From assembly GCA_003551905.1 (NCBI GenBank), contig PUNT01000031.1:1-59552 (forward strand): a DNA stretch of 59,552 nucleotides, read 5' to 3'. This document shows positions 653-21,722 of the stretch, piece after piece. How positions within the stretch are numbered: the first letter of the stretch is position 1; every line of letters begins with the position of its first letter. This stretch comes from Halanaerobiales bacterium (GTDB lineage Bacteria; Bacillota; Halanaerobiia; B1SED10-174). Below the pieces are notes generated by a model. The model made no database searches. It was not told the origin of the DNA and was given only the letters and a program-made list of their open reading frames with translations. The position numbers were made by a program, and so were the translations under genes.

Positions 653-1663
653 TTATTTTTTGAGGATCTGCCGGTAGACTTCCAGATAGTCCCTGGCCAT
701 ACGCATATCGGAAAAGCGGTTTTCCACTTCCTGTCGGCAGTCTTCTCGCCGCAGCGAAGAAACCTTTTCCACAACACCAGCAGCTTCATCCACGTTCGTA
801 ACCAAAAAGCCCGTCTCCCCATTTTTTATCAGTTCGGGCATACTACCCCGGGTGAAGGCAATAACTGGAGTCCCGCTTGCCATGGCTTCCACCACCGAAA
901 GACCAAAAGGTTCGTTGAAGTTAATAGGATGCAGCAAGGCGTAGGATTTCCCCAGCAATTCATTCCTGTTAATTGGGTCAACACTTCCAATGTATATTAC
1001 ATTTTCTCCGTCCAGATGAGGTTTTATCTCTTTTTCGAAGTAGTGTTGATCCTGGATAATGCCGGCTAGAATTAATTTCCGCTGGGCAATGCGGGCAATA
1101 TCTATGGCTTCCCTGGCCCCCTTATCTTGATGAATCCTCCCGAAAAATAGAAGGTCATGCCCTGGCTGGGGGTTAAAGGTGAAATCATCCAGGTCGATTC
1201 CATGATATATGGTAGCCTGGTAGGAAAGATGTGGAGAACGGTCAGCATTGCTAATGGATACATAATAACACTGGCTGTCGTACTTCTGGTACACTGGCAG
1301 GATTTTGGGAGATGAAAAACCGTGAATAGTAGTTAACACCGGTGTGTTTACCAGGTTGCTGTAAGTTAAAGGTAGAAAGTCAAAATGATTGTGAATAAGG
1401 TCAAATTCTTCTGCGCACTCGAATAGTTCTGAAATATGCAAGCATTCCCACACTTTCGGTTCCAGGGAGGGATCTTCTTCGTAAGCACGAGGGCAAACAG
1501 CGCGAAGTTCAGCGCTGGTTTCAGAATCAGCGGTAGCAAATAAGGTAACATTCACCCCAAGGTCAATAAGCTTCTCGGTTAAAAGCGAGACAACTCTTTC
1601 CCATGGGCCATAATGTCGCGGCGGTGTTCTCCAGGCAATGGGTGAAAGCATAGCAATATGCAA
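653..1663 (-). CDS. GT-B fold glycosyltransferase, family 4 (group 1)
   Basis: 336-aa ORF. N-terminal ...IAWRTPPRHYGPWE... and C-terminal ...EPFGLSVVEAMASGTPVIAFTRGSMPELIKNGETGFLV (E-x7-E type GT4 signature). TTG start preceded by AAGGAGAG. Confidence 0.85.
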   Translation of the reverse strand: MHIAMLSPIAWRTPPRHYGPWERVVSLLTEKLIDLGVNVTLFATADSETSAELRAVCPRAYEEDPSLEPKVWECLHISELFECAEEFDLIHNHFDFLPLTYSNLVNTPVLTTIHGFSSPKILPVYQKYDSQCYYVSISNADRSPHLSYQATIYHGIDLDDFTFNPQPGHDLLFFGRIHQDKGAREAIDIARIAQRKLILAGIIQDQHYFEKEIKPHLDGENVIYIGSVDPINRNELLGKSYALLHPINFNEPFGLSVVEAMASGTPVIAFTRGSMPELIKNGETGFLVTNVDEAAGVVEKVSSLRREDCRQEVENRFSDMRMARDYLEVYRQILKK

Positions 1664-1818
1664 AATAATTCTCTCCTTTTTTCTAGGGGGTAAAAAATAT
1701 TGCCTTAAGGCACAGCTCTCTTAAAAGTGAAATGGAAAACCCGGTTGTATGGTTGTTATAGCCGGGGTGGGATCAAGGACAGTTATTAACAGGTAAAAGC
1801 AATTTTCTAGCTATAGTG

Positions 1819-4089
1819 CTAGTGAAAACGCCCGATGAGCTCCCATCGGTAAAGGGCCACCAGACCAATAATAAAAGAAATGGTGGACTCGGCTCCCTTG
1901 TTTTTGCTTGGACCTTCTTGACTCAGCCCATCAGCACATTCGCCTGTAGAAGGGTTATAGAGGGGTTTGCCCAGGCGATTACGGCCCAGGTACCACTGAA
2001 AGGCGGCGTAAGCCAGATCCAGGTACTTATTTTGTTTGCTCAATGCTGTGGCAAGAAGACAGGTTTCTGTTAGGGACCCTGCGTCCAAAGGTTGCTGGCA
2101 GAACAAGGCCCTTTTTCTCCCTTTGAAGTACCAGCCCTGATTGCCGATGAGGTCAAAAAAACCATTCTGGTACTGGAGATCTATAAGAAAATCAAGGGCT
2201 TCTAGAGCTGTTGTCAGGTAGGCTGGCTCGGAAAAGTGTCTATATCCCAGGAGCAAAGCCTGGGGGAGGCGAGCGTTATCATATGTTAAGAAGTCTTCAA
2301 ACCAGGGCCACGAGCTTGAGGCATTTTCCCGGTAGCGTTTCAAAAGAGAATCAACGAGGAAACGAAGACCATCCTTTACTTCTTTTGATTCGGGATAGTG
2401 TAAAAGATAAGAGGACAGACCGCAAGCGCTATAAGCCTGGGCTCGAGTTTCAGTTAGTTTTTTCAAAGAAGGTATGCTGGCTTCTAACAACTCCTTGCCC
2501 AGTAGTCCCTGGTCACGGTTCTGGACAAGCCTGGCCACAGCGCCCAATCCCCACAAACACCTGCCAAAGGTGTCCTGGCTCAGTTCCTGGGTGGGAAATT
2601 CTCTCTGATAGTTCATATAGTTGTGAAACCACCCGTTTTCCTGCCGGGCATGAGAAAGGAAAGCCATATACTTGTCCACCAGGAATAGGACTGACTTATC
2701 CCTGAACATGTTAAAATAATCAGCGCAGGCCACCAGGGCCCGGGCTGCGTCATCGGAGGAATAATAATGGGAATAGTCCGGAATACCAAAGAGTGTATGC
2801 TGGACGATGCCCGTATCGTCTGTCAATGCCCTCAGGTAATTCAGGTTGATGGCTGGCAGGGTGTGCACACGGCCCTGTCGAAGGGTTTTTTTCTTTTTAG
2901 CCCGGTCCACCAGGTTCTCAAAGACCTCTAAGTACTGTCTGGATACCCGGCTCCAGCCCATCTGCTGGCCTAATATATAAGCCTGTCCGGCCAGGGAATT
3001 TCTCTTCTTGGGATCTTCAATTAGCTTGGTAACTGCTTTGGCCATCCCTGCAGGATCTTTGAAGTTGACCAGCTTACCCCGTCCTCCTGCCAGTGCTTCC
3101 CGGGCATGCAGGTACGGCGTGGAAATAATGGCCTTTCCTCTTCCAAGAGAATTACTTAAAACACCGCTGGTTACCTGCCCCCCAGAGTGATAGGGGCAAA
3201 CCACCACGTCTGCCGCTCCCAGATAGGAACCCAAGGTTTCATCATCAACAAAATCATTTATAAAAAGGACATTTTCCGCAATCCCCAGTTTCTTTACCAG
3301 AGACTCCAGTTTTTCCCGGTATTCTTCACCATGACGTTTTTTCACAACTGGATGAGTTATTCCCAGGACAATATACAGGACTTCTGGATGTTTTTTGACT
3401 ACAGATGGAAGGGCTTCCAGCATGATTTCAATGCCTTTGTTGGGGCTTATGAAGCCGAAAGTCAGGATTACAAAGCGTTCTTTCAGTTGTAGTTGATGCT
3501 TGTAATAGGAAGGGTCGATATATAAAGTGTCAGGAACACCGTGATGGATTAAGTGAATCTTGTCCTGTGGAATATCGTACAGGTCGGTCATAAAAGTAGC
3601 CGCTGTCTTGTTCATCACTACCAGGGCATTAGAAAAGGCAGCTACTTCAATGAATGCTGTATCCTGGCCGGGAGTGGGATTTTCCAGGACTGTATGGAAG
3701 GTTGTTACAACAGGTTTTTGTAAATTACTTAAAAACTCTACAATATTGATGCCATCAGGGCCTCCGAATAACCCAAACTCGTGCTGCAGAGAAACTGCAT
3801 CCACTTCCGAGGAATTGATGATTTCTGTGGCTATTTTGTAGTCTTCTATGTTGTCCTGTTCGATCTGATAGATAACACTGGGGGGATAATCGTAAGATTC
3901 GTTATTATTCAAGGCGACAAAACTGGTGGAACCTTGACCTATAAATTCTTCCAGTGCATTGCTCAAATTAGCCGAGAAAGTGGCGATACCACATTTCCGG
4001 GGCAGACAGGTGCTCACGAAGGCAATCTGTAAACGTTTTTTTACTTCCCGGGGACTGAACTGAGGTAATAACAAGAAAAAACCTCCCAA
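1819..4089 (-). CDS. Two-domain protein: N-terminal GT4-like glycosyltransferase plus ~350-aa C-terminal alpha-helical (six-hairpin/toroid-like) domain
   Basis: 756-aa ORF. Residues ~20-400 look GT-B/GT4 (QIAFVST..., ...VVVCPYHSGGQVTSGVLSNSLGRGKAIISTP...). The C-terminal half is W/Y/L-rich helical repeats (...WPWFEDFLTYDNARLPQALLLGY...). Start uncertain: TTG 4089 contains a GGGAGGT that would serve TTG 4074. Confidence 0.8.
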   Translation of the reverse strand: MGGFFLLLPQFSPREVKKRLQIAFVSTCLPRKCGIATFSANLSNALEEFIGQGSTSFVALNNNESYDYPPSVIYQIEQDNIEDYKIATEIINSSEVDAVSLQHEFGLFGGPDGINIVEFLSNLQKPVVTTFHTVLENPTPGQDTAFIEVAAFSNALVVMNKTAATFMTDLYDIPQDKIHLIHHGVPDTLYIDPSYYKHQLQLKERFVILTFGFISPNKGIEIMLEALPSVVKKHPEVLYIVLGITHPVVKKRHGEEYREKLESLVKKLGIAENVLFINDFVDDETLGSYLGAADVVVCPYHSGGQVTSGVLSNSLGRGKAIISTPYLHAREALAGGRGKLVNFKDPAGMAKAVTKLIEDPKKRNSLAGQAYILGQQMGWSRVSRQYLEVFENLVDRAKKKKTLRQGRVHTLPAINLNYLRALTDDTGIVQHTLFGIPDYSHYYSSDDAARALVACADYFNMFRDKSVLFLVDKYMAFLSHARQENGWFHNYMNYQREFPTQELSQDTFGRCLWGLGAVARLVQNRDQGLLGKELLEASIPSLKKLTETRAQAYSACGLSSYLLHYPESKEVKDGLRFLVDSLLKRYRENASSSWPWFEDFLTYDNARLPQALLLGYRHFSEPAYLTTALEALDFLIDLQYQNGFFDLIGNQGWYFKGRKRALFCQQPLDAGSLTETCLLATALSKQNKYLDLAYAAFQWYLGRNRLGKPLYNPSTGECADGLSQEGPSKNKGAESTISFIIGLVALYRWELIGRFH

Positions 4090-4199
4090 TGATTGGTAGT
4101 GTCATGTATTTTACCGGCTACACTAAATTATATCATATAATAGAGGGGATTATCATCTTTTTAGGGAAGTAAAAGAAAAAAGCTATTGGGGTGGTAGTA

Positions 4200-7100
4200 A
4201 TGACTGAGTTAGAGAATAAATATCGACAATCTATATTGCTAATCATGGAAAAAATATCTAAAGAAGTGGAAGTGGACTTAGTTATTGGCGTACCTTTTGT
4301 TAACAGGGGAAAAGATGTGCAAGGTGTCCTGTCTATTTTGGAGGCAGGCCTTGATACCTATTTCCCCAACCGTACAGTATTAATAATTTGCGCCATTAGC
4401 CCCTTCTCCAGTTCCAGCAAGCAGGTATTAGATAACTATGCCTCTAACCATGAAGAGCGTATTCTGGTAACATATCCGGATAAAGAAATATCTGACCGGG
4501 GGTGGATGATACGTAGCCTAATTGATGTGGCCCATAATTTGACTGCAGATCTGTTAATTCTGGAACCCAGCCTTTTAACTGCAAGAAGCAACGATTCACC
4601 AGAAGGATTGACGACTGACTGGATCGAGCTTATGTACCAACCTATCTACGAGGGTCATGCTAAATTTGTCCTTCCACGCTTCAAGCTGTCCCAGATAATC
4701 AACAACAGCATAGGCCACCACTTCTTATTCCCCCTTATGGCATCCCTTTTTAACCTGGAATTAAGAGGATGTCTGGGCGCGGGGATGGGCATCTCCCGTC
4801 ATTTACTGGGCGATATTGTTAATAAAATATCCAATCTTTCCAGTGATCTTTATGAATACGGCATTGATTACTGGCTCATAATACGGGCTCTGGAGCTAAA
4901 AGCGGATTTTGCCGAGGTGTTCCTGGGAAACAAGCCCTATGTTGCCCCACACATTGGACTTGGCTACATGTTCAGCCAGGCTGCCCAGGTGGTTTTTCAG
5001 TCCATAGGTCAAAGCTCACTTGTTTGGAAAAGAAATCCACAAGCTGTTAGATCAGCACTAACTATTGGCCCCAGAGAAAATCTTTTCCTTCAGGAGATTT
5101 CCCTGGAGCAACGGCCATACTTGAATAACTTCCGCCGGGGCTTTAGCCGGTATTATGATGCCGTCTGGTCCCGTATTTTTTCAGAAGAGCTTTCTATCCA
5201 GATCAGGAAAGCTGCTACCTGTGCCGAAGAAGATTTCTCCTTCCCCGCTGCCCTCTGGGCCGAGGCGACCTATGAATCTCTAATTTCCTATCACTTTAAC
5301 CCCAATCTGGAAAAAGAGGATTTGGCCAACAGTTTGACGCCTCTTTTTGAAGGTAGGCTGGCAGGTTTTTTAGGGGAGCTCGCCACCCCTACCCATTGCG
5401 GACTTGATGGGGTATCCGCCAGGGTTACAGCTTGCCCGTTTAATGCCAATAACAATCTGGCAGTCCAAGATGATGCTTTCATCAGTCGCAGACCTGCTTT
5501 TATAGAAAAATGGATCCCTCATAAAGAAGCCCTGAAACCCTTTTTACCAGAAATCTCTTATTGGGAGTATATCCCAGGGGTTCCCATTATTCTGCCCCAC
5601 ATGGTCCGTTCACCTTCAGGAAAAAGTGCCCGGGTGGCAGAAATTTACGAACAACTGTTGATAGAGTATAAAGAGGAGTTTAAAGTATTCACCCGGAAAA
5701 ATTTGGGGCTTTCCATCAAGGATAATTTTGAAAAAATTGGCCGGGGTGTACGCAATTTGGTGCAAAAAACAGAAGAAAATCTGGACCAGTTTTTATTGCC
5801 GGGCGATGTTCACTCCCAAAAGGATATTCAGGATATGGCGGATAAAATTATTAAACTCTATCCTTTTCCTGAAAGCCTCTCCTTGAATGAAGAGGTGGCC
5901 CAGCGATTGATCCGGGAGCATCCCCCACGAAACCTTATTACCCTCTGGGGTTACCAGGATACGGATGAGTTATTAAAATATCACAACCCCCTTGATGTTC
6001 TAGCCCTGGCTTCCTGGACCGAAGCTGCCCGTTATACTACCTGGAACAGCGAGTGGCTAAGGAAAAACTTGAAACCAGAGCATTTCCAGATGTCCCCCAT
6101 CAAGCCCCTGGTAGTAGATCACCTGGAGTTTCCTGCCCTGCTTGGAATGAAAGAAGCTCCCTCCTTAAACCATCTCACCAGCCGTATTCTCATCAACAAC
6201 CTGAGACCGGGCAGTGGTGGCAGTTTCCCCAAGGTACGCTTTTTGACCATTGTCTTGAAAAATATTATTGAAGCTGAGCAGTTTGGCATGATCTGGGAAT
6301 CATTTCAAAAAGACCATAGTAAAGATTTTGGAGAAAAAGTAGTTAATTCTATCGAAGGGCACTGGGGTACCAGCATGTTCTCGGCCCACAGCATTTTTGA
6401 GAACATTCAACATCGAATTCTTAAGGATAAACTCCTAGAAATTGCACGGCAGGACTGGGGTGTACAAAGTGAAGCTTTGGATGAAGCCCGGGAATTATTG
6501 GTTCAAATGGCTGCAGCGTACCATCTGGGGCTCACTTTACCGGGCGGTCATTTTATCACCTGTTCACTCTGGAGTTGGGCCAGTTACAGCTTTAAAGGAG
6601 GTAAAGGCGTTCCTACACCATTGTCCCTGATGATTGAGCGGCGCTGGTTCAACAGTGAGCTGTTTTTCCGTTGCTACGAAAAAGTAGAAGGAAGCCGCCA
6701 GGAAATATATTCTATAATTGAAGAGCTTATGGGTCAGGGCAGAGAACGAGAAGACCTAGCTGTCTCCTTCCTGGGAGCTCCAACTGATAGTGAGGACGTA
6801 ATTGTATATCAAAAAACCGAAAAAGATCCCCCACCAGCCGGCAAACTGACCCGAGCTCCCGTCAATCCTATTCTAACCCCGGTACCCCAACATCAATGGG
6901 AGTCAAAGTATGTCTTAAACTGTGGAGCTATAAGGGTCAATGGAGATGTTCATATTTTCTACCGGGCAGTAGGGGATGACGGGATCTCCCGTATCGGGCT
7001 TGCTCTTAGTAAGAACGGGTTGCAGGTAGATGAACGTCTCCATGGTCCTATTTTTTGCCCGGACCATGAAAGTGAAAAAATGGGCTGTGAAGATCCCAGG

Positions 7101-7799
7101 CTTATCAGCATGGAAGGCCGTGTATACATGCTCTACACTGCCTACGATGGAGTTACACCTCAAATCGCACTTGCATCTATTACAGAAGACGACCTGATCC
7201 AGCAGCGCTGGCAACACTGGCACCGGCATGGATTGGTTTTTCCCGGATTTCCCAACAAAGATGCAGTCTTGTTTCCGGAACGGTTTGGCGGTAAGCTGGC
7301 CATGTACCACCGCATTGCACCAAGTATCTGGGTGGCCTTCTCCGACACCTTCAATACACCCTGGCCCCGGGATGGTCATAAAATTATCATGGGCAGCCGC
7401 TCTGGCTTGATGTGGGATGCAGTAAAAATTGGTGCTGGCGCTCAGCCTCTTAAAACTCGCTACGGCTGGCTTTTGATTTATCACGGGGTGGACTACGGGC
7501 TCTGCTATCGTCTGGGTGTTTTCCTCACATCCTTAGACGATCCGGTGGAGGTGCTCTACCGCTCTCCCAACCATATCCTGGAGCCGGAAAAGTCTTTTGA
7601 AATTGGGGTTTCAGGCCATAGCTGGGTTCCAAACGTAGTCTTTACCTGTGGAGCCATCCCCGGTAAAGATAAGGCCATCCTGGATGATGACGATGAAATC
7701 CTGGTCTATTACGGGGGAGCAGCCACCGTTATCGGTGTAGCTTCTGCCCGGGTAGCTGATCTCATCCCTGCCAGGATTCGTGAGAATAGATCTGAGTAA
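4200..7799 (+). CDS. ~1200-aa multidomain protein: C-terminal GH130 (beta-mannoside phosphorylase/hydrolase-like) domain, large uncharacterised N-terminal region
   Basis: ORF track 4191..7799; ATG 4200 has a GGGGTGG SD 5 nt upstream. The last ~310 aa carry GH130/DUF377 hallmarks (...VLNCGAIRVNGDVHIFYRAVGDDGISRIGLALSKNG..., ...GCEDPRLISMEGRVYMLYTAYDG..., ...GWLLIYHGVD..., ...ILVYYGGAATVIG). Confidence 0.85.
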   Translation: MTELENKYRQSILLIMEKISKEVEVDLVIGVPFVNRGKDVQGVLSILEAGLDTYFPNRTVLIICAISPFSSSSKQVLDNYASNHEERILVTYPDKEISDRGWMIRSLIDVAHNLTADLLILEPSLLTARSNDSPEGLTTDWIELMYQPIYEGHAKFVLPRFKLSQIINNSIGHHFLFPLMASLFNLELRGCLGAGMGISRHLLGDIVNKISNLSSDLYEYGIDYWLIIRALELKADFAEVFLGNKPYVAPHIGLGYMFSQAAQVVFQSIGQSSLVWKRNPQAVRSALTIGPRENLFLQEISLEQRPYLNNFRRGFSRYYDAVWSRIFSEELSIQIRKAATCAEEDFSFPAALWAEATYESLISYHFNPNLEKEDLANSLTPLFEGRLAGFLGELATPTHCGLDGVSARVTACPFNANNNLAVQDDAFISRRPAFIEKWIPHKEALKPFLPEISYWEYIPGVPIILPHMVRSPSGKSARVAEIYEQLLIEYKEEFKVFTRKNLGLSIKDNFEKIGRGVRNLVQKTEENLDQFLLPGDVHSQKDIQDMADKIIKLYPFPESLSLNEEVAQRLIREHPPRNLITLWGYQDTDELLKYHNPLDVLALASWTEAARYTTWNSEWLRKNLKPEHFQMSPIKPLVVDHLEFPALLGMKEAPSLNHLTSRILINNLRPGSGGSFPKVRFLTIVLKNIIEAEQFGMIWESFQKDHSKDFGEKVVNSIEGHWGTSMFSAHSIFENIQHRILKDKLLEIARQDWGVQSEALDEARELLVQMAAAYHLGLTLPGGHFITCSLWSWASYSFKGGKGVPTPLSLMIERRWFNSELFFRCYEKVEGSRQEIYSIIEELMGQGREREDLAVSFLGAPTDSEDVIVYQKTEKDPPPAGKLTRAPVNPILTPVPQHQWESKYVLNCGAIRVNGDVHIFYRAVGDDGISRIGLALSKNGLQVDERLHGPIFCPDHESEKMGCEDPRLISMEGRVYMLYTAYDGVTPQIALASITEDDLIQQRWQHWHRHGLVFPGFPNKDAVLFPERFGGKLAMYHRIAPSIWVAFSDTFNTPWPRDGHKIIMGSRSGLMWDAVKIGAGAQPLKTRYGWLLIYHGVDYGLCYRLGVFLTSLDDPVEVLYRSPNHILEPEKSFEIGVSGHSWVPNVVFTCGAIPGKDKAILDDDDEILVYYGGAATVIGVASARVADLIPARIRENRSE

Positions 7800-8713
7800 G
7801 CTTGGTGGAACAGTATGGGAATAGAGGTATATTCACAACAAATTTTATTTTCACCGACAAAATAAAGAAAATATTAGGATACTAATTGCATGGATTATAA
7901 AAACTTATGAAGATATTACTTGCAAAAAATAACAAGTGAGAGAATTTCTTATCATGGTCAAGCCTGTTGGTATGTCAGCAATTGTAAAGTTCAACAAAAA
8001 ATATTTATATGAAATTTAAAAACCCCATAAATGGCAGCAGAGTTTTCCAGGTAATTTGGAAATAGGGATAGGATGCATTGGTGGCACCATTGGAGAAAAC
8101 GAATTTTCTATGGAGGCATTAAACAGAGAAGCGAAGAAATAGGGACAGAGGTTGAGTTAATTGAGTGGGATCAACCATTTTCGGTGAGTAGCGATCTGCA
8201 GGTTAGCAATAAAAGTCTTCAAGTAGAAGATAATTTATTCTTAACCTGGTATGAAAGAATGCAGAATATGTGTTTTTCAAGGTAAAGCCAGGAAGAGGCC
8301 TTTTCCAGAAGATTTGCCCGGGCGGTTGATAACAGATTTAGGCTTATTGAGGGACTGTATTGATAAGGGATTGTCAATAGAGGAGGGCCTGATAAGAGGT
8401 ATGGAGATTATATCAAGAGGATCAATACCGGCCAAAGGAATAATCAAGGGAGCAGGAATAGTTGAAATATTAGGAGAGCTCTATAAAAACCATAGGAGAA
8501 AAATAGAACACTTATTATAATAAGGACCAGAAATTTCAACTACACTCTTGGTTATACCCAATAGGAGATTGTTTTTATAATGTGGCAATAAAAATCCCTT
8601 TACTGAGTGGAGGGAGTTTTTTTATGTTTCAAAGGTAATTATCTGAAAATGGTGAATAATAATTTATAGAAATCCCCAATTTCTTTAATAACAAAAGTAT
8701 TGGAGGGTTAAAA

Positions 8714-14014: not shown

Positions 14015-15472
14015 TTGTTAGAGACGGTTACTGGTGGTAGCCTGAAAGTTCTCAAGGATGGAGACATGCAAGAGATACATCAGGCAACGTTGGATATTAT
14101 GGAAGATACAGGCATAAAAGTTCACAACAAGAGAGCCCTGGAAATATTCGCCAGTCATGGTGCTCAGGTTGATAAGGGAAAAAAGCTGGTTAAGATACCT
14201 CCCTCCATGGTGGAAGATGCTTTAGCCAGCACACCTTCTTCTGTTGTTCTATGCGGTCGAGAAGAAAAATATGACTTGCATCTGAGCAAGACCAATACCT
14301 ACCTGGGAACAGGAGGTACTGTCCTCTCAACTCTAGACCTGGAAACAGGGAAAAAGCGGCCAACAGAAACCAGTGATATTGCCGGCTATGCCAGACTCAC
14401 CGATAGCCTGGAGAATATCGCTTTTTTTGTTATCAACTGTTACCCGGATGATGTGGAGATTGAAGATGTAGATGTAAATAGATTCTATCACTCCCTGGCC
14501 AATACCAGCAAACATGTGATGGGTGGAATCTATACCATGAAGGGCCTGAAGGATGTTATTTCCATGGGGGAGGATATAGCAGGAGGTAAAGAAAAACTCC
14601 TTGCCCGCCCCTTCCTGTCCTTCATAACCCTGATGATGAGTCCTCTGGTAATGGAAACTGACTATACTGATTTTCTCATAGAGGTAGCCCAGTATGGTTT
14701 GCCCATTGCCACACCCTCAGAACCCCTGGCCGGGGCAACATCGCCAGTAACCCTTGCTGGCACCATAACCATCAACAATATCGAATCCCTGGCTGGTCTC
14801 ATACTGGTTCAACTTATCAACAAAGGTAATCCCACCCTCTATGGTTCAACTTCCAGCATCATGGATCCCCGCTCCGGCATATATCTGTCTGGCTGTATTG
14901 AATCTGCCCTCATCAATGCTGGTTGTGCCCAGATGGCCCAGTACTATGACATTCCCATCTACGCAACTGGGGGCATGTCTGATTCCAAGGTAGTGGACTG
15001 TCAGGCTGGCTATGAAAAAGCTGCAACAGCCCTAACAGTAGCACTTTCCGGGGCCAATTTCATCCATGATGCTGCCGGCCTCCTGGAATTCTGTACCACC
15101 CTTTCCTATGAACAGATGGTAATCGATAATGAAATACTGGGTATAGTTCTCAGGGCTACCAGAGGTGTAGAGGTTGACAGTGAAGCTATTGCTGCTGATG
15201 TTATCCGCTCAGTTGGTCCTGGAGGCAATTTCCTGGCTGAAGAACACACTGCTCGCAATGTTCGCAAGGAGTTCTTCATGCCCAAGGTTGCTGATAGGAA
15301 TACCCGGGATAAGTGGGAAAATATGGGTTCGCCAGATACCCATACAAGAGCCAGGGAAAAGGCGCAAAAACTGCTAAGAGAGCACAAGCCCCTGGGATTT
15401 CCTGAAGAGGTTGAAAAACTTCTTGTGGACAGGTACCAGGGCATCAAGAAAAGGAGTGTCCAGGAAAAATGA
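14015..15472 (+). CDS. MttB-superfamily (trimethylamine methyltransferase-like) protein, non-pyrrolysine type
   Basis: 485-aa uninterrupted ORF. Family-typical ...IHQATLDIMEDTGIKV..., ...NTSKHVMGGIYT..., ...GPGGNFLAEEHT... No in-frame TAG. Confidence 0.85.
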   Translation: MLETVTGGSLKVLKDGDMQEIHQATLDIMEDTGIKVHNKRALEIFASHGAQVDKGKKLVKIPPSMVEDALASTPSSVVLCGREEKYDLHLSKTNTYLGTGGTVLSTLDLETGKKRPTETSDIAGYARLTDSLENIAFFVINCYPDDVEIEDVDVNRFYHSLANTSKHVMGGIYTMKGLKDVISMGEDIAGGKEKLLARPFLSFITLMMSPLVMETDYTDFLIEVAQYGLPIATPSEPLAGATSPVTLAGTITINNIESLAGLILVQLINKGNPTLYGSTSSIMDPRSGIYLSGCIESALINAGCAQMAQYYDIPIYATGGMSDSKVVDCQAGYEKAATALTVALSGANFIHDAAGLLEFCTTLSYEQMVIDNEILGIVLRATRGVEVDSEAIAADVIRSVGPGGNFLAEEHTARNVRKEFFMPKVADRNTRDKWENMGSPDTHTRAREKAQKLLREHKPLGFPEEVEKLLVDRYQGIKKRSVQEK

Positions 15473-16917
15473 GTTTTCAGGGTTTCAGCAGCGGTTATTA
15501 CCGCCCCCTATCGGTAAAAGAAGTTGAGCGCATACACAATACCTCCATGCGAATCTTGGAAGAAGTAGGCTTTATGATAGACAACGATAGAGTTCTCAAG
15601 TTTTTGGAGGACTATGGTTGCCAGGTGGACTATGAGAACAAAAGAGTTTTTGTGGAAACTAAATTGCTTCTGAAAACCATCAAAAGAGCCCCAGCCCGAA
15701 TTTTTCTCTGTGCTAGAGATGAAGAGAAAGATCTAATAATAGAACCCAATAAAACATTTTTCAGCAACGGAGGTACCGCCATCAAGATGATAGATCTGGA
15801 TAATGGCAAAAGACGAGATACCTGCCTTAAAGATCTGGCCCAGATTTGCAAGGTAGTGGATATACTAAAGAATATCCATGTGGTTCACCTGCCGGTTTAC
15901 CCCAATGAATTACCCATGGAAACAGTTGATATCCACCGCTTTTTTACAGCCCTGAACAATAATACCAAGCATGTAATGGGAGGACTCTATACACTGCAAG
16001 GGGCCAGAGATGTCATCAGGATTGCCAGCATTATAAACGGGTCAAACAGCCTGGCAGAAAAACCAATAATCAGTTTCATCACTTCACTGATCAGCCCCCT
16101 GAAGATAGAAGGAAATTATGCAGATATAATGTACGAGGCAGCTCAAAACGGTATTCCTGTGGTCACTTCTGTTTGTTCCATAGCTGGTCTTACCACCCCC
16201 ATTACCTTAGCCGGCCAGTTGGCTCAGTTGAATGCCGAAGCCCTGAGCGGTATATTCCTCATGCAGGTCTTTAAAGCCGGGTCGCCAGCTTTTTATAGTG
16301 TGGTTCCAACCATTGCGGACATGCGTTCAATGCAATTTCTCTTTGGGTCAATAGAAAGTGGTCTCATGAACTCAGCCCTGGCCCAGATGGCTTCATTCTA
16401 CAATTTGCCCATGTATTCCACCGGGGGAGTAACAGATTCCAAGACCAGCGATATACAGGCCGGATTTGAAAAAGGCATGAGCAGTTTAATGCTTTCCCTG
16501 GCCGGAGGTCAGCTAATCCACAATTCAGCCGGGCTGCTGGAGGGAAGTATTGTCTTCAGCCTGGAAGAACTCATTATTGATGATGAGATAAATGGTATGG
16601 CCTTGCGAGCTGCCCGGGGTATTGAGATCGATGAACAGACACTGGCTTTTGCAGCCATCAAAGAGGTTGGTCCCGGGGGCAATTATATTACCCATCCCCA
16701 TACCATGAATTATCTGCACTCAGAGAACTTCTTTCCCCAGGTAGCAGAGCGGAGCAACTACGTGGAATGGATACAGAAAGGAGCCTGGACATCGCCAGGT
16801 AAAGCCAATAAGATAAGCAAGGATATTCTGGAAACTCATCATGTACCGCCACTGGAGGATAATGTGCTGGAACAGATAGAGAAAGAGTTTCCCCAGTTAC
16901 AACAGCTAAAGGTATAA
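15469..16917 (+). CDS. Second MttB-superfamily protein, non-pyrrolysine type (paralogue)
   Basis: 482 aa. ATG overlaps the upstream stop (ATGA at 15469-15472). ...IHNTSMRILEEVGF..., ...NNTKHVMGGLYT..., ...GPGGNYITHPHT... Confidence 0.85.
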   Translation: MSFQGFSSGYYRPLSVKEVERIHNTSMRILEEVGFMIDNDRVLKFLEDYGCQVDYENKRVFVETKLLLKTIKRAPARIFLCARDEEKDLIIEPNKTFFSNGGTAIKMIDLDNGKRRDTCLKDLAQICKVVDILKNIHVVHLPVYPNELPMETVDIHRFFTALNNNTKHVMGGLYTLQGARDVIRIASIINGSNSLAEKPIISFITSLISPLKIEGNYADIMYEAAQNGIPVVTSVCSIAGLTTPITLAGQLAQLNAEALSGIFLMQVFKAGSPAFYSVVPTIADMRSMQFLFGSIESGLMNSALAQMASFYNLPMYSTGGVTDSKTSDIQAGFEKGMSSLMLSLAGGQLIHNSAGLLEGSIVFSLEELIIDDEINGMALRAARGIEIDEQTLAFAAIKEVGPGGNYITHPHTMNYLHSENFFPQVAERSNYVEWIQKGAWTSPGKANKISKDILETHHVPPLEDNVLEQIEKEFPQLQQLKV

Positions 16918-20450: not shown

Positions 20451-21107
20451 ATGGCCAGGAAGAGTTTCGCCCAGGAGTTAAACAATCTTTTTCAGGAAAT
20501 TTTGTATATGGGAGGTCTGGTTAAAAAAGATATTAAAGATACGGTGGTAGCCCTGAAAAACCATGATCTGGATTTAGCCCAGAAAGTAATTGATGGTGAT
20601 GATAAAATTGATGAACTGGAATTGCAGATTGAAGACAAATGCATGACATTAATTGCCCGACAGCAACCCATGGCCAGGGATCTTCGCCGCATTGGAACCG
20701 CTCTAAAGATAATAACCGACCTGGAGAGGATAGCTGATCATGCCAGCGGGATTGCCAGGATTACCCTTCGTATCGGTCAGGAGCCCCATATCAAACCACT
20801 GGTGGATATTCCCCGGATGGCCAGTATAGCAGAGGAGATGGTGACCAAATCTCTGCAGGCTTTCATCGATGAAGACGTTGAAAAAGCCTATGAAGTATGT
20901 GCCCTTGATGATGAAGTGGATAACCTCCATGAACAAATCATCAGGGAACTGATTACATTTATGATGGAGGATCACCGCAATATTAAACAGGCAACTCAGC
21001 TGCTATTTGTTTCCAGTTATCTGGAAAGGATAGGTGATCATGCTACTAATCTAGGGGAATGGCTGATTTTTATGGTTACAGGAGAACGGAAAGAGCTCAA
21101 TGATTAA
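20451..21107 (+). CDS. phoU: Phosphate signalling complex protein PhoU
   Basis: Two PhoU repeats (...DDKIDELE..., ...DLERIADHA... / ...DDEVDNLH..., ...YLERIGDHATN...). ATG 20451 follows GGGGGTGA. Confidence 0.9.
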   Translation: MARKSFAQELNNLFQEILYMGGLVKKDIKDTVVALKNHDLDLAQKVIDGDDKIDELELQIEDKCMTLIARQQPMARDLRRIGTALKIITDLERIADHASGIARITLRIGQEPHIKPLVDIPRMASIAEEMVTKSLQAFIDEDVEKAYEVCALDDEVDNLHEQIIRELITFMMEDHRNIKQATQLLFVSSYLERIGDHATNLGEWLIFMVTGERKELND

Positions 21108-21133
21108 AGACAGATAAAATTCTTAAGGGTGCA

Positions 21134-21162
21134 AAAAAATCCGGCTCATCACCGGATTTTTT
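21134..21162. terminator. Bidirectional terminator
   Basis: AAAAAATCCGG (21134-21144) pairs with CCGGATTTTTT (21152-21162). A-run and T-run flanks serve phoU (+) and the 21213..21722 gene (-). Confidence 0.7.
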
Positions 21163-21212
21163 ATGTGCATGTTGAATTTTTCATCCCCCCGCTAAGCTCT
21201 TCTCTTGCTCAA

Positions 21213-21722
21213 TTATTTAACCATAAAATTCTGCAGGTAATTGCAGAATTTATCGTTGGTGAGTTTTTTCCGGTGCTGATTCTCCTGTTTTTCATGAAGG
21301 AACCTCTGTATCCCATTATCCAGGGCAGCAAAGAGTTCAGTTATGTGAATGGCCTTGGCCGGGATTTCCTTCCCATCCAGAATTTTTTGCAGAGCTTCTT
21401 TATCCTGATTGCCCCAGGCATAGAAGAGATTTGTTTTGTTGCCGGTTTCTGGCACAATGGAGGTCATGATGGTGCACCTGGCATTGTAGAGTTCTTCTCC
21501 TGTGCACTGCAATGTATTCTCAGGCTTCATGTATTCATTGACCCAGTTGATATAGGCAGTACGGGTGAGTTTTTTGCTTTGCTTGGGCAGGGAAAGCCAT
21601 ACCATGGAATCTATACCAAAGTATATGAGGAGGAGACCAGGAATGATCAGTTTTTTTTCTAGACAAAAATTGATGGCACATAAGAGGTCATAAAGATTTC
21701 TTAATAGCAGGGGAGATAGCAT
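21213..21722 (-). CDS. Hypothetical protein, no family recognised
   Basis: ORF track 21213..21752. The internal ATG at 21722 is preceded by AAGGAGG at 7-nt spacing, giving 169 aa (MLSPLLLRNLYDLLCAINF...). Lower-GC surroundings. Confidence 0.6.
   Translation of the reverse strand: MLSPLLLRNLYDLLCAINFCLEKKLIIPGLLLIYFGIDSMVWLSLPKQSKKLTRTAYINWVNEYMKPENTLQCTGEELYNARCTIMTSIVPETGNKTNLFYAWGNQDKEALQKILDGKEIPAKAIHITELFAALDNGIQRFLHEKQENQHRKKLTNDKFCNYLQNFMVK

Follow-up and report, generated by a model that had tools for sequence, protein, structure and literature searches.

The nearest described system to the locus reported here is the Teth514_1785-1796 cluster of Thermoanaerobacter sp. X-514, in which Teth514_1788 is a 1,2-beta-oligomannan phosphorylase and Teth514_1789 a beta-1,2-mannobiose phosphorylase, both of subfamily GH130_6 of the glycoside hydrolase (GH) classification (PMC4264767). 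The source of the substrate of these phosphorylases was not found by Chiku et al. 2014, and the physiological meaning of the transferase activity of GH130 enzymes was left open by Ladeveze et al. 2025. The bacterial source and the role of beta-1,2-mannosides are the open question that is addressed here with a three-gene locus on contig PUNT01000031.1 of a Halanaerobiales bacterium. The entire contig (59,552 nt) was studied and is referred to as the window. The locus encodes a small glycosyltransferase (GT) of family GT4, a second GT4 domain fused to a helical toroid-like domain (the partner GT4 and the toroid) and, on the opposite strand, a protein of about 1200 residues that ends in a GH130 module (the giant). 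The trio is read as one copy of a conserved cytoplasmic module for the synthesis, and the recycling by phosphorolysis, of a soluble 1,2-linked oligosaccharide or glycoside with mannose as a constituent; a probability of roughly 0.55 is given to this reading. The module joins a predicted beta-1,2-mannoside phosphorylase to transferase-fold modules and occurs in GDP-mannose operons of Bacillota, Dehalococcoidia and other anaerobes. Because of this fusion of phosphorylase and transferase folds within GDP-mannose operons, it is a concrete candidate for endogenous beta-1,2-mannoside synthesis.

The giant gene lies at 4191-7799 on the plus strand (1202 aa as listed from GTG 4191). A preliminary description of this DNA had proposed a ~1200-aa protein ending in a GH130 domain, and the Pfam model Glyco_hydro_130 (PF04041) was indeed matched over residues 902-1191 with 162.5 bits, far over the cut-off of 26. 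The domain, a GH130 five-bladed propeller, makes up the C-terminal ~320 residues (module 3; 6831..7799, plus strand). The NCBIfam model for beta-1,2-mannobiose phosphorylase (NF052550) was matched with 250.6 bits and its equivalog cut-off of 450 was not reached; judged by these profiles, beta-1,2-mannobiose phosphorylase is the nearest family and not the equivalog of the module. The module is ~40-45% identical to beta-1,2-mannoside phosphorylases and aligned end to end with PDB 9fj8 (Teth514_1788; E 1.5e-58) and 7fip (E 1.2e-55). In pairwise alignments the motifs EDPR (with the catalytic Asp), NKD, HR, YHG and YRLG are common to the module and to Teth514_1788/1789. Across 22 homologues these motifs were invariant, with residues E967, D968, R970, K1023, H1040, R1041, H1098 and Y1106 (numbering of the 1202-aa open reading frame (ORF) from GTG 4191, P0003), the phosphate contacts being assigned by motif. 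In GH130 beta-1,2-mannosidases, Glu is found in place of the basic phosphate-holding residues (PMC4599007). Since these basic residues are kept here, unlike in the GH130 hydrolases, the module is predicted to be of the beta-1,2-mannoside phosphorylase type, with GH130_6 as its nearest subfamily. With all phosphorylase motifs present, it would interconvert a beta-1,2-mannoside and phosphate with alpha-mannose-1-phosphate and an acceptor. In Teth514_1789, subsite +3 is blocked by a Trp; the alignment shows a gap at its position here, as in Teth514_1788, the position having been placed via an inferred 11-residue tag offset. A second GH130 gene was not found in the source genome (93.6% complete).

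The evidence that the three genes belong together comes from related loci. Database searches retrieved ~60 full-length relatives of the giant (1180-1240 aa), unnamed or called 'glycosidase', and the full three-module giant was present in all 80 related loci fetched, which derive from Bacillota (Dethiobacter, Anoxynatronum, Tepidanaerobacter, Syntrophomonadaceae, Peptococcaceae), Dehalococcoidia and a few other bins and include soda-lake and thermophilic anaerobes; Tepidanaerobacter acetatoxydans and Anoxynatronum buryatiense are culturable carriers. A partner GT4 was present in 56 of 81 loci. The preliminary description had been made to depend, beforehand, on conservation of the neighbourhood in related genomes, and this conservation was indeed observed. 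In the 41 loci whose flanks reach 3 kb or more on either side of the giant, a partner GT4 was found in 33 and a toroid in 25 (both scored at a distance of up to 10 kb from the giant), the mannose-1-phosphate guanylyltransferase ManC in 16, phosphomannomutase (PMM) in 16 and phosphomannose isomerase (PMI) in 10. When the ORFs were clustered, the small GT4, the GT4-toroid protein and a stand-alone GH130 recurred as neighbours, as did PMM or phosphoglucomutase, mannose-1-phosphate guanylyltransferase and a PMI cupin. The gene order seen most often is PMM< ManC< PMI< GT4-toroid< GIANT>, divergent as in the window; in L001, the closest locus (70% identity), the seven genes all share a strand. GT4 and toroid are encoded by a single ORF in 21 loci, whereas in 11 they are split into separate ORFs side by side. 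PMI, ManC and PMM lead from fructose-6-phosphate to mannose-1-phosphate and GDP-mannose, and their presence inside the same operons in relatives lends independent support to the mannose-linked chemistry that had been suggested for the locus. Of 401 genomes sampled from the phylum of the window, 51 have the giant, mostly in a few families; the toroid was found in 45 of these 51 genomes as compared with 47 of the 350 genomes without a giant.

The same neighbourhoods bear on a purely catabolic role. Imported beta-1,2-mannosides would then be phosphorolysed to mannose-1-phosphate, which would feed GDP-mannose synthesis or glycolysis, while the GT4s would serve unrelated glycans. The GH130_6 relatives are phosphorylases and such a model was proposed for the Thermoanaerobacter cluster (PMC4264767); moreover, PMM and PMI beside the giant fit a route from mannose-1-phosphate to fructose-6-phosphate. 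However, no conserved solute-binding protein or sugar permease was found near the giant in 81 loci, and the recurrent ABC ATPase is MacB/LolD exporter-like, as classified by sequence alone. The anabolic ManC is as frequent as PMM, and linkage between GT4, toroid and GH130 parts is seen throughout the 81 loci. A fusion of 1,199 residues with a transferase-fold module is also left unexplained by salvage, which as the sole function of the locus is considered unlikely.

The cytoplasmic synthesis of a soluble product, as preferred here, is consistent with the affiliation of the small GT4 (653..1663, minus strand; 336 aa, start TTG 1663). It matched Pfam Glycos_transf_1 with 84.2 bits (cut-off 26.4) and aligned over its full length with TeGSS (PDB 7fg9/8x3q; E 1e-77, 43.7% identity across 332 aligned positions). 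Its motifs are a canonical EX7E (EPFGLSVVE), the signature of GT4 with two donor-contacting glutamates, and GR....KG. Residues Y18, R179, K184 and E256 of TeGSS as well as the second glutamate of EX7E are kept; the acceptor-stacking Trp10 differs from TeGSS in being out of register (A10/W11). The protein is accordingly placed, by these alignments, in the glucosylsucrose-synthase / BH4-glucosyltransferase group of GT4, members of which lengthen soluble sugars, a nucleotide sugar being the donor for alpha-1,2 transfer. The catalytic residues Tyr18 and Arg179, together with Lys184 and Glu256, mark the group, and TeGSS itself (tll1591, Thermosynechococcus elongatus; PDB 7fg9/7fga/8x3u/8x3q) is a UDP-glucose:sucrose alpha-1,2-glucosyltransferase (PMC9909042). 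The sugar added by the small GT4 may be glucose instead of mannose. In the 401-genome sample, orthologues of the small GT4 were found in 35 genomes, 33 of which also have the toroid.

Residues 1-880 of the giant had been treated as one uncharted block; they are resolved here into a GT-A module and an undescribed domain. An AF2 model of residues 1-877, built from 63 homologues, had a pLDDT of 88. Module 1 (4200..5534, plus strand; residues 1-445) has a GT-A Rossmann-like fold with a helical subdomain. For residues 1 to ~440, the best Foldseek match, helical subdomain included, was the mannosylglycerate synthase of Rhodothermus marinus (family GT78; 2y4j/2y4k/2y4m; E 1e-8, TM 0.70-0.71 over targets of 377-380 residues), and further GT-A enzymes ranked after it; residues 21-128 gave weak GT2 profile matches against the PDB. 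In 44 distant homologues (Dehalococcoidia, Tepidanaerobacter, Syntrophomonadaceae and others), eight positions of the module are 89-100% conserved, namely E36 (IPFYNE), G66 and G70 (G-x-P-x-G loop), G99, D124, D155, H164 and K253. A metal-binding DxD at the end of the central strand is a hallmark of GT-A enzymes, and D124, the Asp of LEAD, occupies the DxD position; it is 91% conserved in the distant homologues (LEADL), where the window has LEPSL. In the window and in 18 closer relatives all eight positions are substituted, and the remainder of the module is still ~40-50% identical. The conserved positions look like a working GT-A site in the distant homologues, whereas we read the module as catalytically decayed in the clade of the window, with a structural or binding role probably retained. 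In other lineages the module is probably a still active, mannosylglycerate-synthase-like transferase that forms primers. It was also considered whether the small GT4 compensates for the decayed module; this was not supported, as its orthologues also occur in genome families with giants of the distant type and in genomes that have the toroid and no giant.

The fold of module 1 raises the question of a compatible solute of the mannosylglycerate type, in which the GT-A module or a GT4 would transfer mannose to glycerate or a comparable small acid, to give a product that the remaining enzymes would extend and recycle. The match to the Rhodothermus synthase at a TM of 0.70 and the soda-lake and thermophilic anaerobes among the carriers fit such a role. 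Likewise, TeGSS-type enzymes yield stress solutes, the products of TeGSS being cytoplasmic, stress-induced oligosaccharides (PMC9909042), and mannosylglucosylglycerate is made by GT4 mannosyltransferases (PMC3736172). The solute is nevertheless judged distinctly unlikely, and somewhat more so than salvage: the GT-A module lacks the conserved acidic and His residues in the clade of the window, likeness to GT78 was not detected at the level of sequence, no conserved glycerate-related or phosphatase gene lies nearby, and a beta-1,2-mannoside phosphorylase plays no part in known pathways of this type. A supposed precedent, according to which the mannosylglucosyl-3-phosphoglycerate synthase MggA would be a GH130/DUF377 enzyme, proved to be wrong, since MggA is classed as GT4 (PMC3736172).

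The gene of the fusion protein (1819-4089, minus strand; 756 aa as listed) begins with a GT4 domain at 2890..4074 (minus strand). Glycos_transf_1 was matched with 74.4 bits (cut-off 26.4). The best solved match, PimA, is weak (E 4e-14) and covers the nucleotide-binding half only. In the alignment to PimA (4n9w/2gej), the two glutamates of EX7E are replaced by Q and N (GGQVTSGVLSN), at positions which we take to be E274 and E282 of Mycobacterium smegmatis PimA; the Arg of GR....KG is gone and the Lys retained. Of 55 aligned partner GT4s, which comprise fused and split forms as well as the 453-aa Dehalococcoidia type, nearly all have kept the Gln and the following Ser-Gly, and the loss of EX7E extends to all of them. 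The preliminary description had spoken of two retaining-type GT-B transferases. Membership of GT4 holds for both proteins, but the fused one is not an ordinary or equivalent member, as the EX7E glutamates are present in none of its homologues. The partner GT4s, here called Q-type, form a distinct, divergent subfamily of GT4, and their donor may be other than an ordinary nucleotide sugar. In a Dethiobacteria locus (L017), a fused GT4-toroid gene (14408-16648) is accompanied by a second, unfused Q-type GT4 gene (20464-21702) after PMI-ManC-PMM. An envelope glycolipid or glycoconjugate, for which PimA-like GT4s on the cytoplasmic side would attach mannose to a membrane lipid and GH130 would edit the chain, is very unlikely, for although PimA is a lipid mannosyltransferase and envelope glycan loci typically hold GDP-mannose genes, the PimA match is as partial as stated, membrane segments are absent from all three proteins, no conserved flippase, polymerase, lipid-carrier, acyltransferase or membrane-protein gene was found near the giant in the loci compared, the relatives of the small GT4 use soluble acceptors (PMC9909042), and nothing in the analysis favours a glycolipid product.

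The fusion of this GT4 to a helical toroid-like domain of ~350 aa, as had been proposed for the 756-aa protein, was confirmed by Pfam, AF2 and Foldseek. The toroid (1819..2889, minus strand; 356 aa and stop) is a YPO2471-like (alpha/alpha)6 six-hairpin domain. The AF2 model of the C-terminal 356 residues is an (alpha/alpha)6 barrel (pLDDT 91.7, pTM 0.91). Its best Foldseek match was 7tem (E 1e-14, TM 0.78), followed, by fold only, by AGE epimerases and GH9 enzymes. In a profile search against the PDB, 7tem was matched with E 6.6e-21 and the DD and GAEST motifs were found to be common; Pfam gave no match to the toroid below E 0.1. Residues D446, D447, R450, R510, Y603, N605, Q665, Q666, D720, N730 and E734 are invariant (numbering of the 756-aa ORF from TTG 4089, P0002), and in the model the invariant polar residues lie at the N-termini of the barrel helices, the sugar-binding side of six-hairpin enzymes. 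Six-hairpin glycoside hydrolases (for example GH9, GH15 and GH125) have an acid/base pair of carboxylates at the mouth of the barrel; in the model of the toroid, the invariant D446, D447, D720 and E734 are located at the helix ends named above. Pairing of an AGE-type epimerase with GH130, as in mannan catabolism, was considered because of the fold matches (E 2e-8, TM ~0.7). AGE epimerases and isomerases, such as cellobiose 2-epimerase and mannose isomerase, depend on a catalytic histidine pair, and no invariant or near-invariant histidine was found in 36 toroid domains; an AGE-type mechanism is thus excluded for the toroid. A homologue of the mycobacterial hydrolase MmpH was rejected as well, MmpH being absent from both the sequence and the fold matches.

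Module 2 of the giant (5535..6830, plus strand; residues 446-877) is an undescribed domain of ~430 residues, in which the most conserved motifs of the family are located: PPxNL, KGxGGxFPK, SAHxIFEN and WSWASYSFKGGKGxPTPLSL. Pfam searches with three slices of the N-terminal part of the giant gave no match below E 0.1. In the PDB, a sequence match was not found for residues ~446-877, nor was a fold match for the domain; the 50 best matches of the model of residues 1-877 were all nucleotide-sugar or GT-A-type enzymes. A profile of residues 446-877 retrieved 392 matches among 1.84 billion representative proteins. Beyond the giants, these include a stand-alone family of ~420 aa (E 1e-21 to 1e-10), for which neither Pfam nor NCBIfam has a model. 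With hhalign, residues ~474-750 of the giant were aligned to this family over 274 columns (99.8%, E 2e-29), SAHxIFEN of the giant being equivalent to PHxNPE of the stand-alone family in a common His...Glu motif. These matches identify the domain as a new family with distant stand-alone relatives. Gene neighbours could be read for four stand-alone members on contigs extending past the gene (L082:2635-3894, L083:4001-5263, L084:6001-7266 and L086:3049-4272). Two of them directly follow a PfkB sugar kinase in pentose-phosphate operons, one follows a ribulose-phosphate 3-epimerase and one a nucleotidyltransferase in a glycopolymer cluster; transketolase, ribulose-phosphate epimerase, RpiB and GAPDH are encoded in the operons with the PfkB kinase. 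In other relatives the fusion partner is a nucleotidyltransferase, DHH, LOG, methyltransferase or glucan-synthase-like domain. These contexts give hints, and no more, of sugar-phosphate or nucleotide-sugar handling by the middle-domain family, and the stand-alone proteins could be a sugar-phosphate enzyme of small-genome bacteria.

The layout of the locus agrees with the preliminary description, in which three neighbouring ORFs had been listed at 653-1663 (minus), 1819-4089 (minus) and 4191-7799 (plus); these are real genes. A ribosome-binding site, AAAGGAGAG, is located upstream of TTG 1663 of the small GT4, GGGAGG precedes TTG 4074, the probable start of a fusion protein of 751 aa, and ATG 4200 gives a giant of 1199 aa, in agreement with the gene call on record (P0004). 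Because of the ribosome-binding sites, TTG 1663, TTG 4074 and ATG 4200 are considered the likely true starts. The divergent region that had been noted between the gene sets comprises 110 bp with the listed starts and 125 bp with the probable ones (4075..4199). It contains an extended -10 element, TGATATAAT, on the minus strand at ~4127-4135, which would serve the GT4-toroid transcription unit. TGnTATAAT (ATTATAnCA on the plus strand) is also present in the equivalent spacers of 10 related loci (L004, L005, L009, L010, L012, L014, L016, L018, L023 and L061). A perfect palindrome, TTATATCATATAA, at 4127-4142 of the window contains the extended -10 and overlaps the -10 elements of both directions; it could equally serve as a regulator site. 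On the left, a convergent gene ends at 3-146 and is followed by a terminator-like hairpin at 222-239. On the right, directly downstream of the giant, 0.9 kb (7800-8713) with a G+C content of 34%, as compared with 44.5% for the genome, holds no ORF of at least 100 aa, and a terminator-like hairpin is located at 8595-8615. Given the convergent gene end on the left and the low-G+C stretch on the right, the locus of the source genome consists of the trio alone. A hydrophobic N-terminus or signal peptide is absent from all three proteins, and the mean hydropathy over 19 residues (Kyte-Doolittle) never exceeds 1.42 in any of them. All three are hence predicted to be cytoplasmic, and the earlier expectation of cytoplasmic chemistry is borne out by the hydropathy of all three proteins.

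The distribution of the module is patchy around the source genome. In 12 genomes of the same class (96-100% complete), neither the giant nor an orthologue of the small GT4 was found, and the toroid gave one weak partial match; the best matches come from a different family (f81) of the phylum. This phyletic pattern, taken alone, suggests that the giant was acquired by transfer. Recent horizontal transfer was not supported by composition: the G+C content of the locus is 0.466 compared with 0.445 +/- 0.026 for the genome, and 23% of 7-kb windows are higher. Six of the 51 genomes with a giant (G257, G270, G296, G322, G373 and G397) have two full-length paralogues of it at separate sites. In five loci of the Tepidanaerobacteraceae type (L057, L060, L063, L064 and L067), the giant is followed by a conserved downstream block of a MacB/LolD-like ABC ATPase gene and three genes for proteins of ~290, 380 and 410-440 aa.

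Under the reading of the trio as a module for synthesis and recycling, the GT4s would use nucleotide sugars to build the glycoside or to prime it. The GH130 module would add or remove beta-1,2-mannose and thereby tie the pool to mannose-1-phosphate and phosphate without ATP, while the six-hairpin domain would trim or cleave the product, either for the generation of primers or for turnover. The decayed GT-A module might act as a binding or scaffolding part, for the substrate or for a partner. The middle domain would bind, convert or channel a sugar phosphate or nucleotide sugar, or bind the substrate or a partner.

Several points count against this scheme. Phosphorylases are mostly catabolic, and no biochemical or expression record was found for any member of the module. 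The EX7E glutamates of the fused GT4 and the acidic and His residues of the GT-A module are lost, so that two presumed transferase activities may be absent or different. In the source genome, the GDP-mannose genes are not adjacent to the trio; ManC is encoded on another contig, and a close PMM was not found in this 93.6% complete assembly. The nearest characterised relative of the small GT4 takes UDP-glucose and not GDP-mannose (PMC9909042). Finally, the transferase activity of GH130 enzymes is regarded as possibly without a physiological role (PMC12814180).

In comparison with known systems, the likeness to the Teth514_1785-1796 cluster consists of GH130_6 phosphorylases beside the mannose-1-phosphate guanylyltransferase ManC, a GT4 and hypothetical proteins. 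The Teth514 phosphorylases are single-domain proteins of ~300 aa, whereas the module described here makes up the final third of a fusion of 1,199 aa, and an ABC importer and a GH5 are present there and neither of them here. The genomic partner of TeGSS is a sucrose-phosphate synthase, that of the small GT4 the toroid/GH130 module. The only solved sequence relative of the toroid is YPO2471 of Yersinia pestis (PDB 7tem), a structural-genomics 'putative exported protein' on which a literature search found no paper; with 19% identity, it differs in being annotated as exported and in standing alone, whereas the toroid is predicted to be cytoplasmic and is fused to GT4. From the GT78 mannosylglycerate synthase, the GT-A module is set apart by 12% identity, the lack of a sequence-profile match, the loss of the DxD-equivalent Asp and the fusion to two further modules. 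The mycobacterial ManT/MmpH system (PMC9883506) offers an analogy only: a PimA/MshA-like GT4 elongates an intracellular mannose polymer and an (alpha/alpha)6-barrel hydrolase recycles it into primers, but these are separate proteins with alpha-1,4 linkages and no GH130 partner.

A functional analogy is also offered by the mannogen cycle of Leishmania (GT108 mannosyltransferase/phosphorylases; cited in PMC12814180 and PMC10913872), in which a cytoplasmic beta-1,2-mannan is both built and degraded by enzymes of GH130-like fold with GDP-mannose, mannose-1-phosphate and phosphate. The cycle differs in being eukaryotic, in belonging to family GT108 and in having no GT4, toroid or extra modules. The trio could represent its bacterial counterpart, an intracellular reserve of beta-1,2-mannan or short mannosides primed by GT4/GT-A and elongated and mobilised by GH130, with the middle domain as a new sugar-phosphate or nucleotide-sugar enzyme that channels mannose-1-phosphate; this more specific proposal is speculative and, taken as a whole, improbable. 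If it were true, the stand-alone relatives of the middle domain would account for a step that is still unassigned in the sugar-phosphate operons of bacteria with small genomes. To our knowledge, no beta-1,2-mannan reserve is known from bacteria.

No characterised pathway was found to match the trio, as the preliminary description had held, and in the literature and family libraries consulted no characterised member was found for the families of the giant, the Q-type GT4, the YPO2471-like barrel or the middle domain. Three unstudied protein parts are thereby exposed, namely the EX7E-less GT4 subfamily, the YPO2471-like barrel and the domain of ~430 residues. New elements of the present analysis are the proposed TeGSS identity of the small GT4, the clade-specific map of the apparent GT-A decay, the loss of EX7E in all partner GT4s and the finding that the middle domain is homologous to stand-alone proteins encoded in sugar-phosphate operons.

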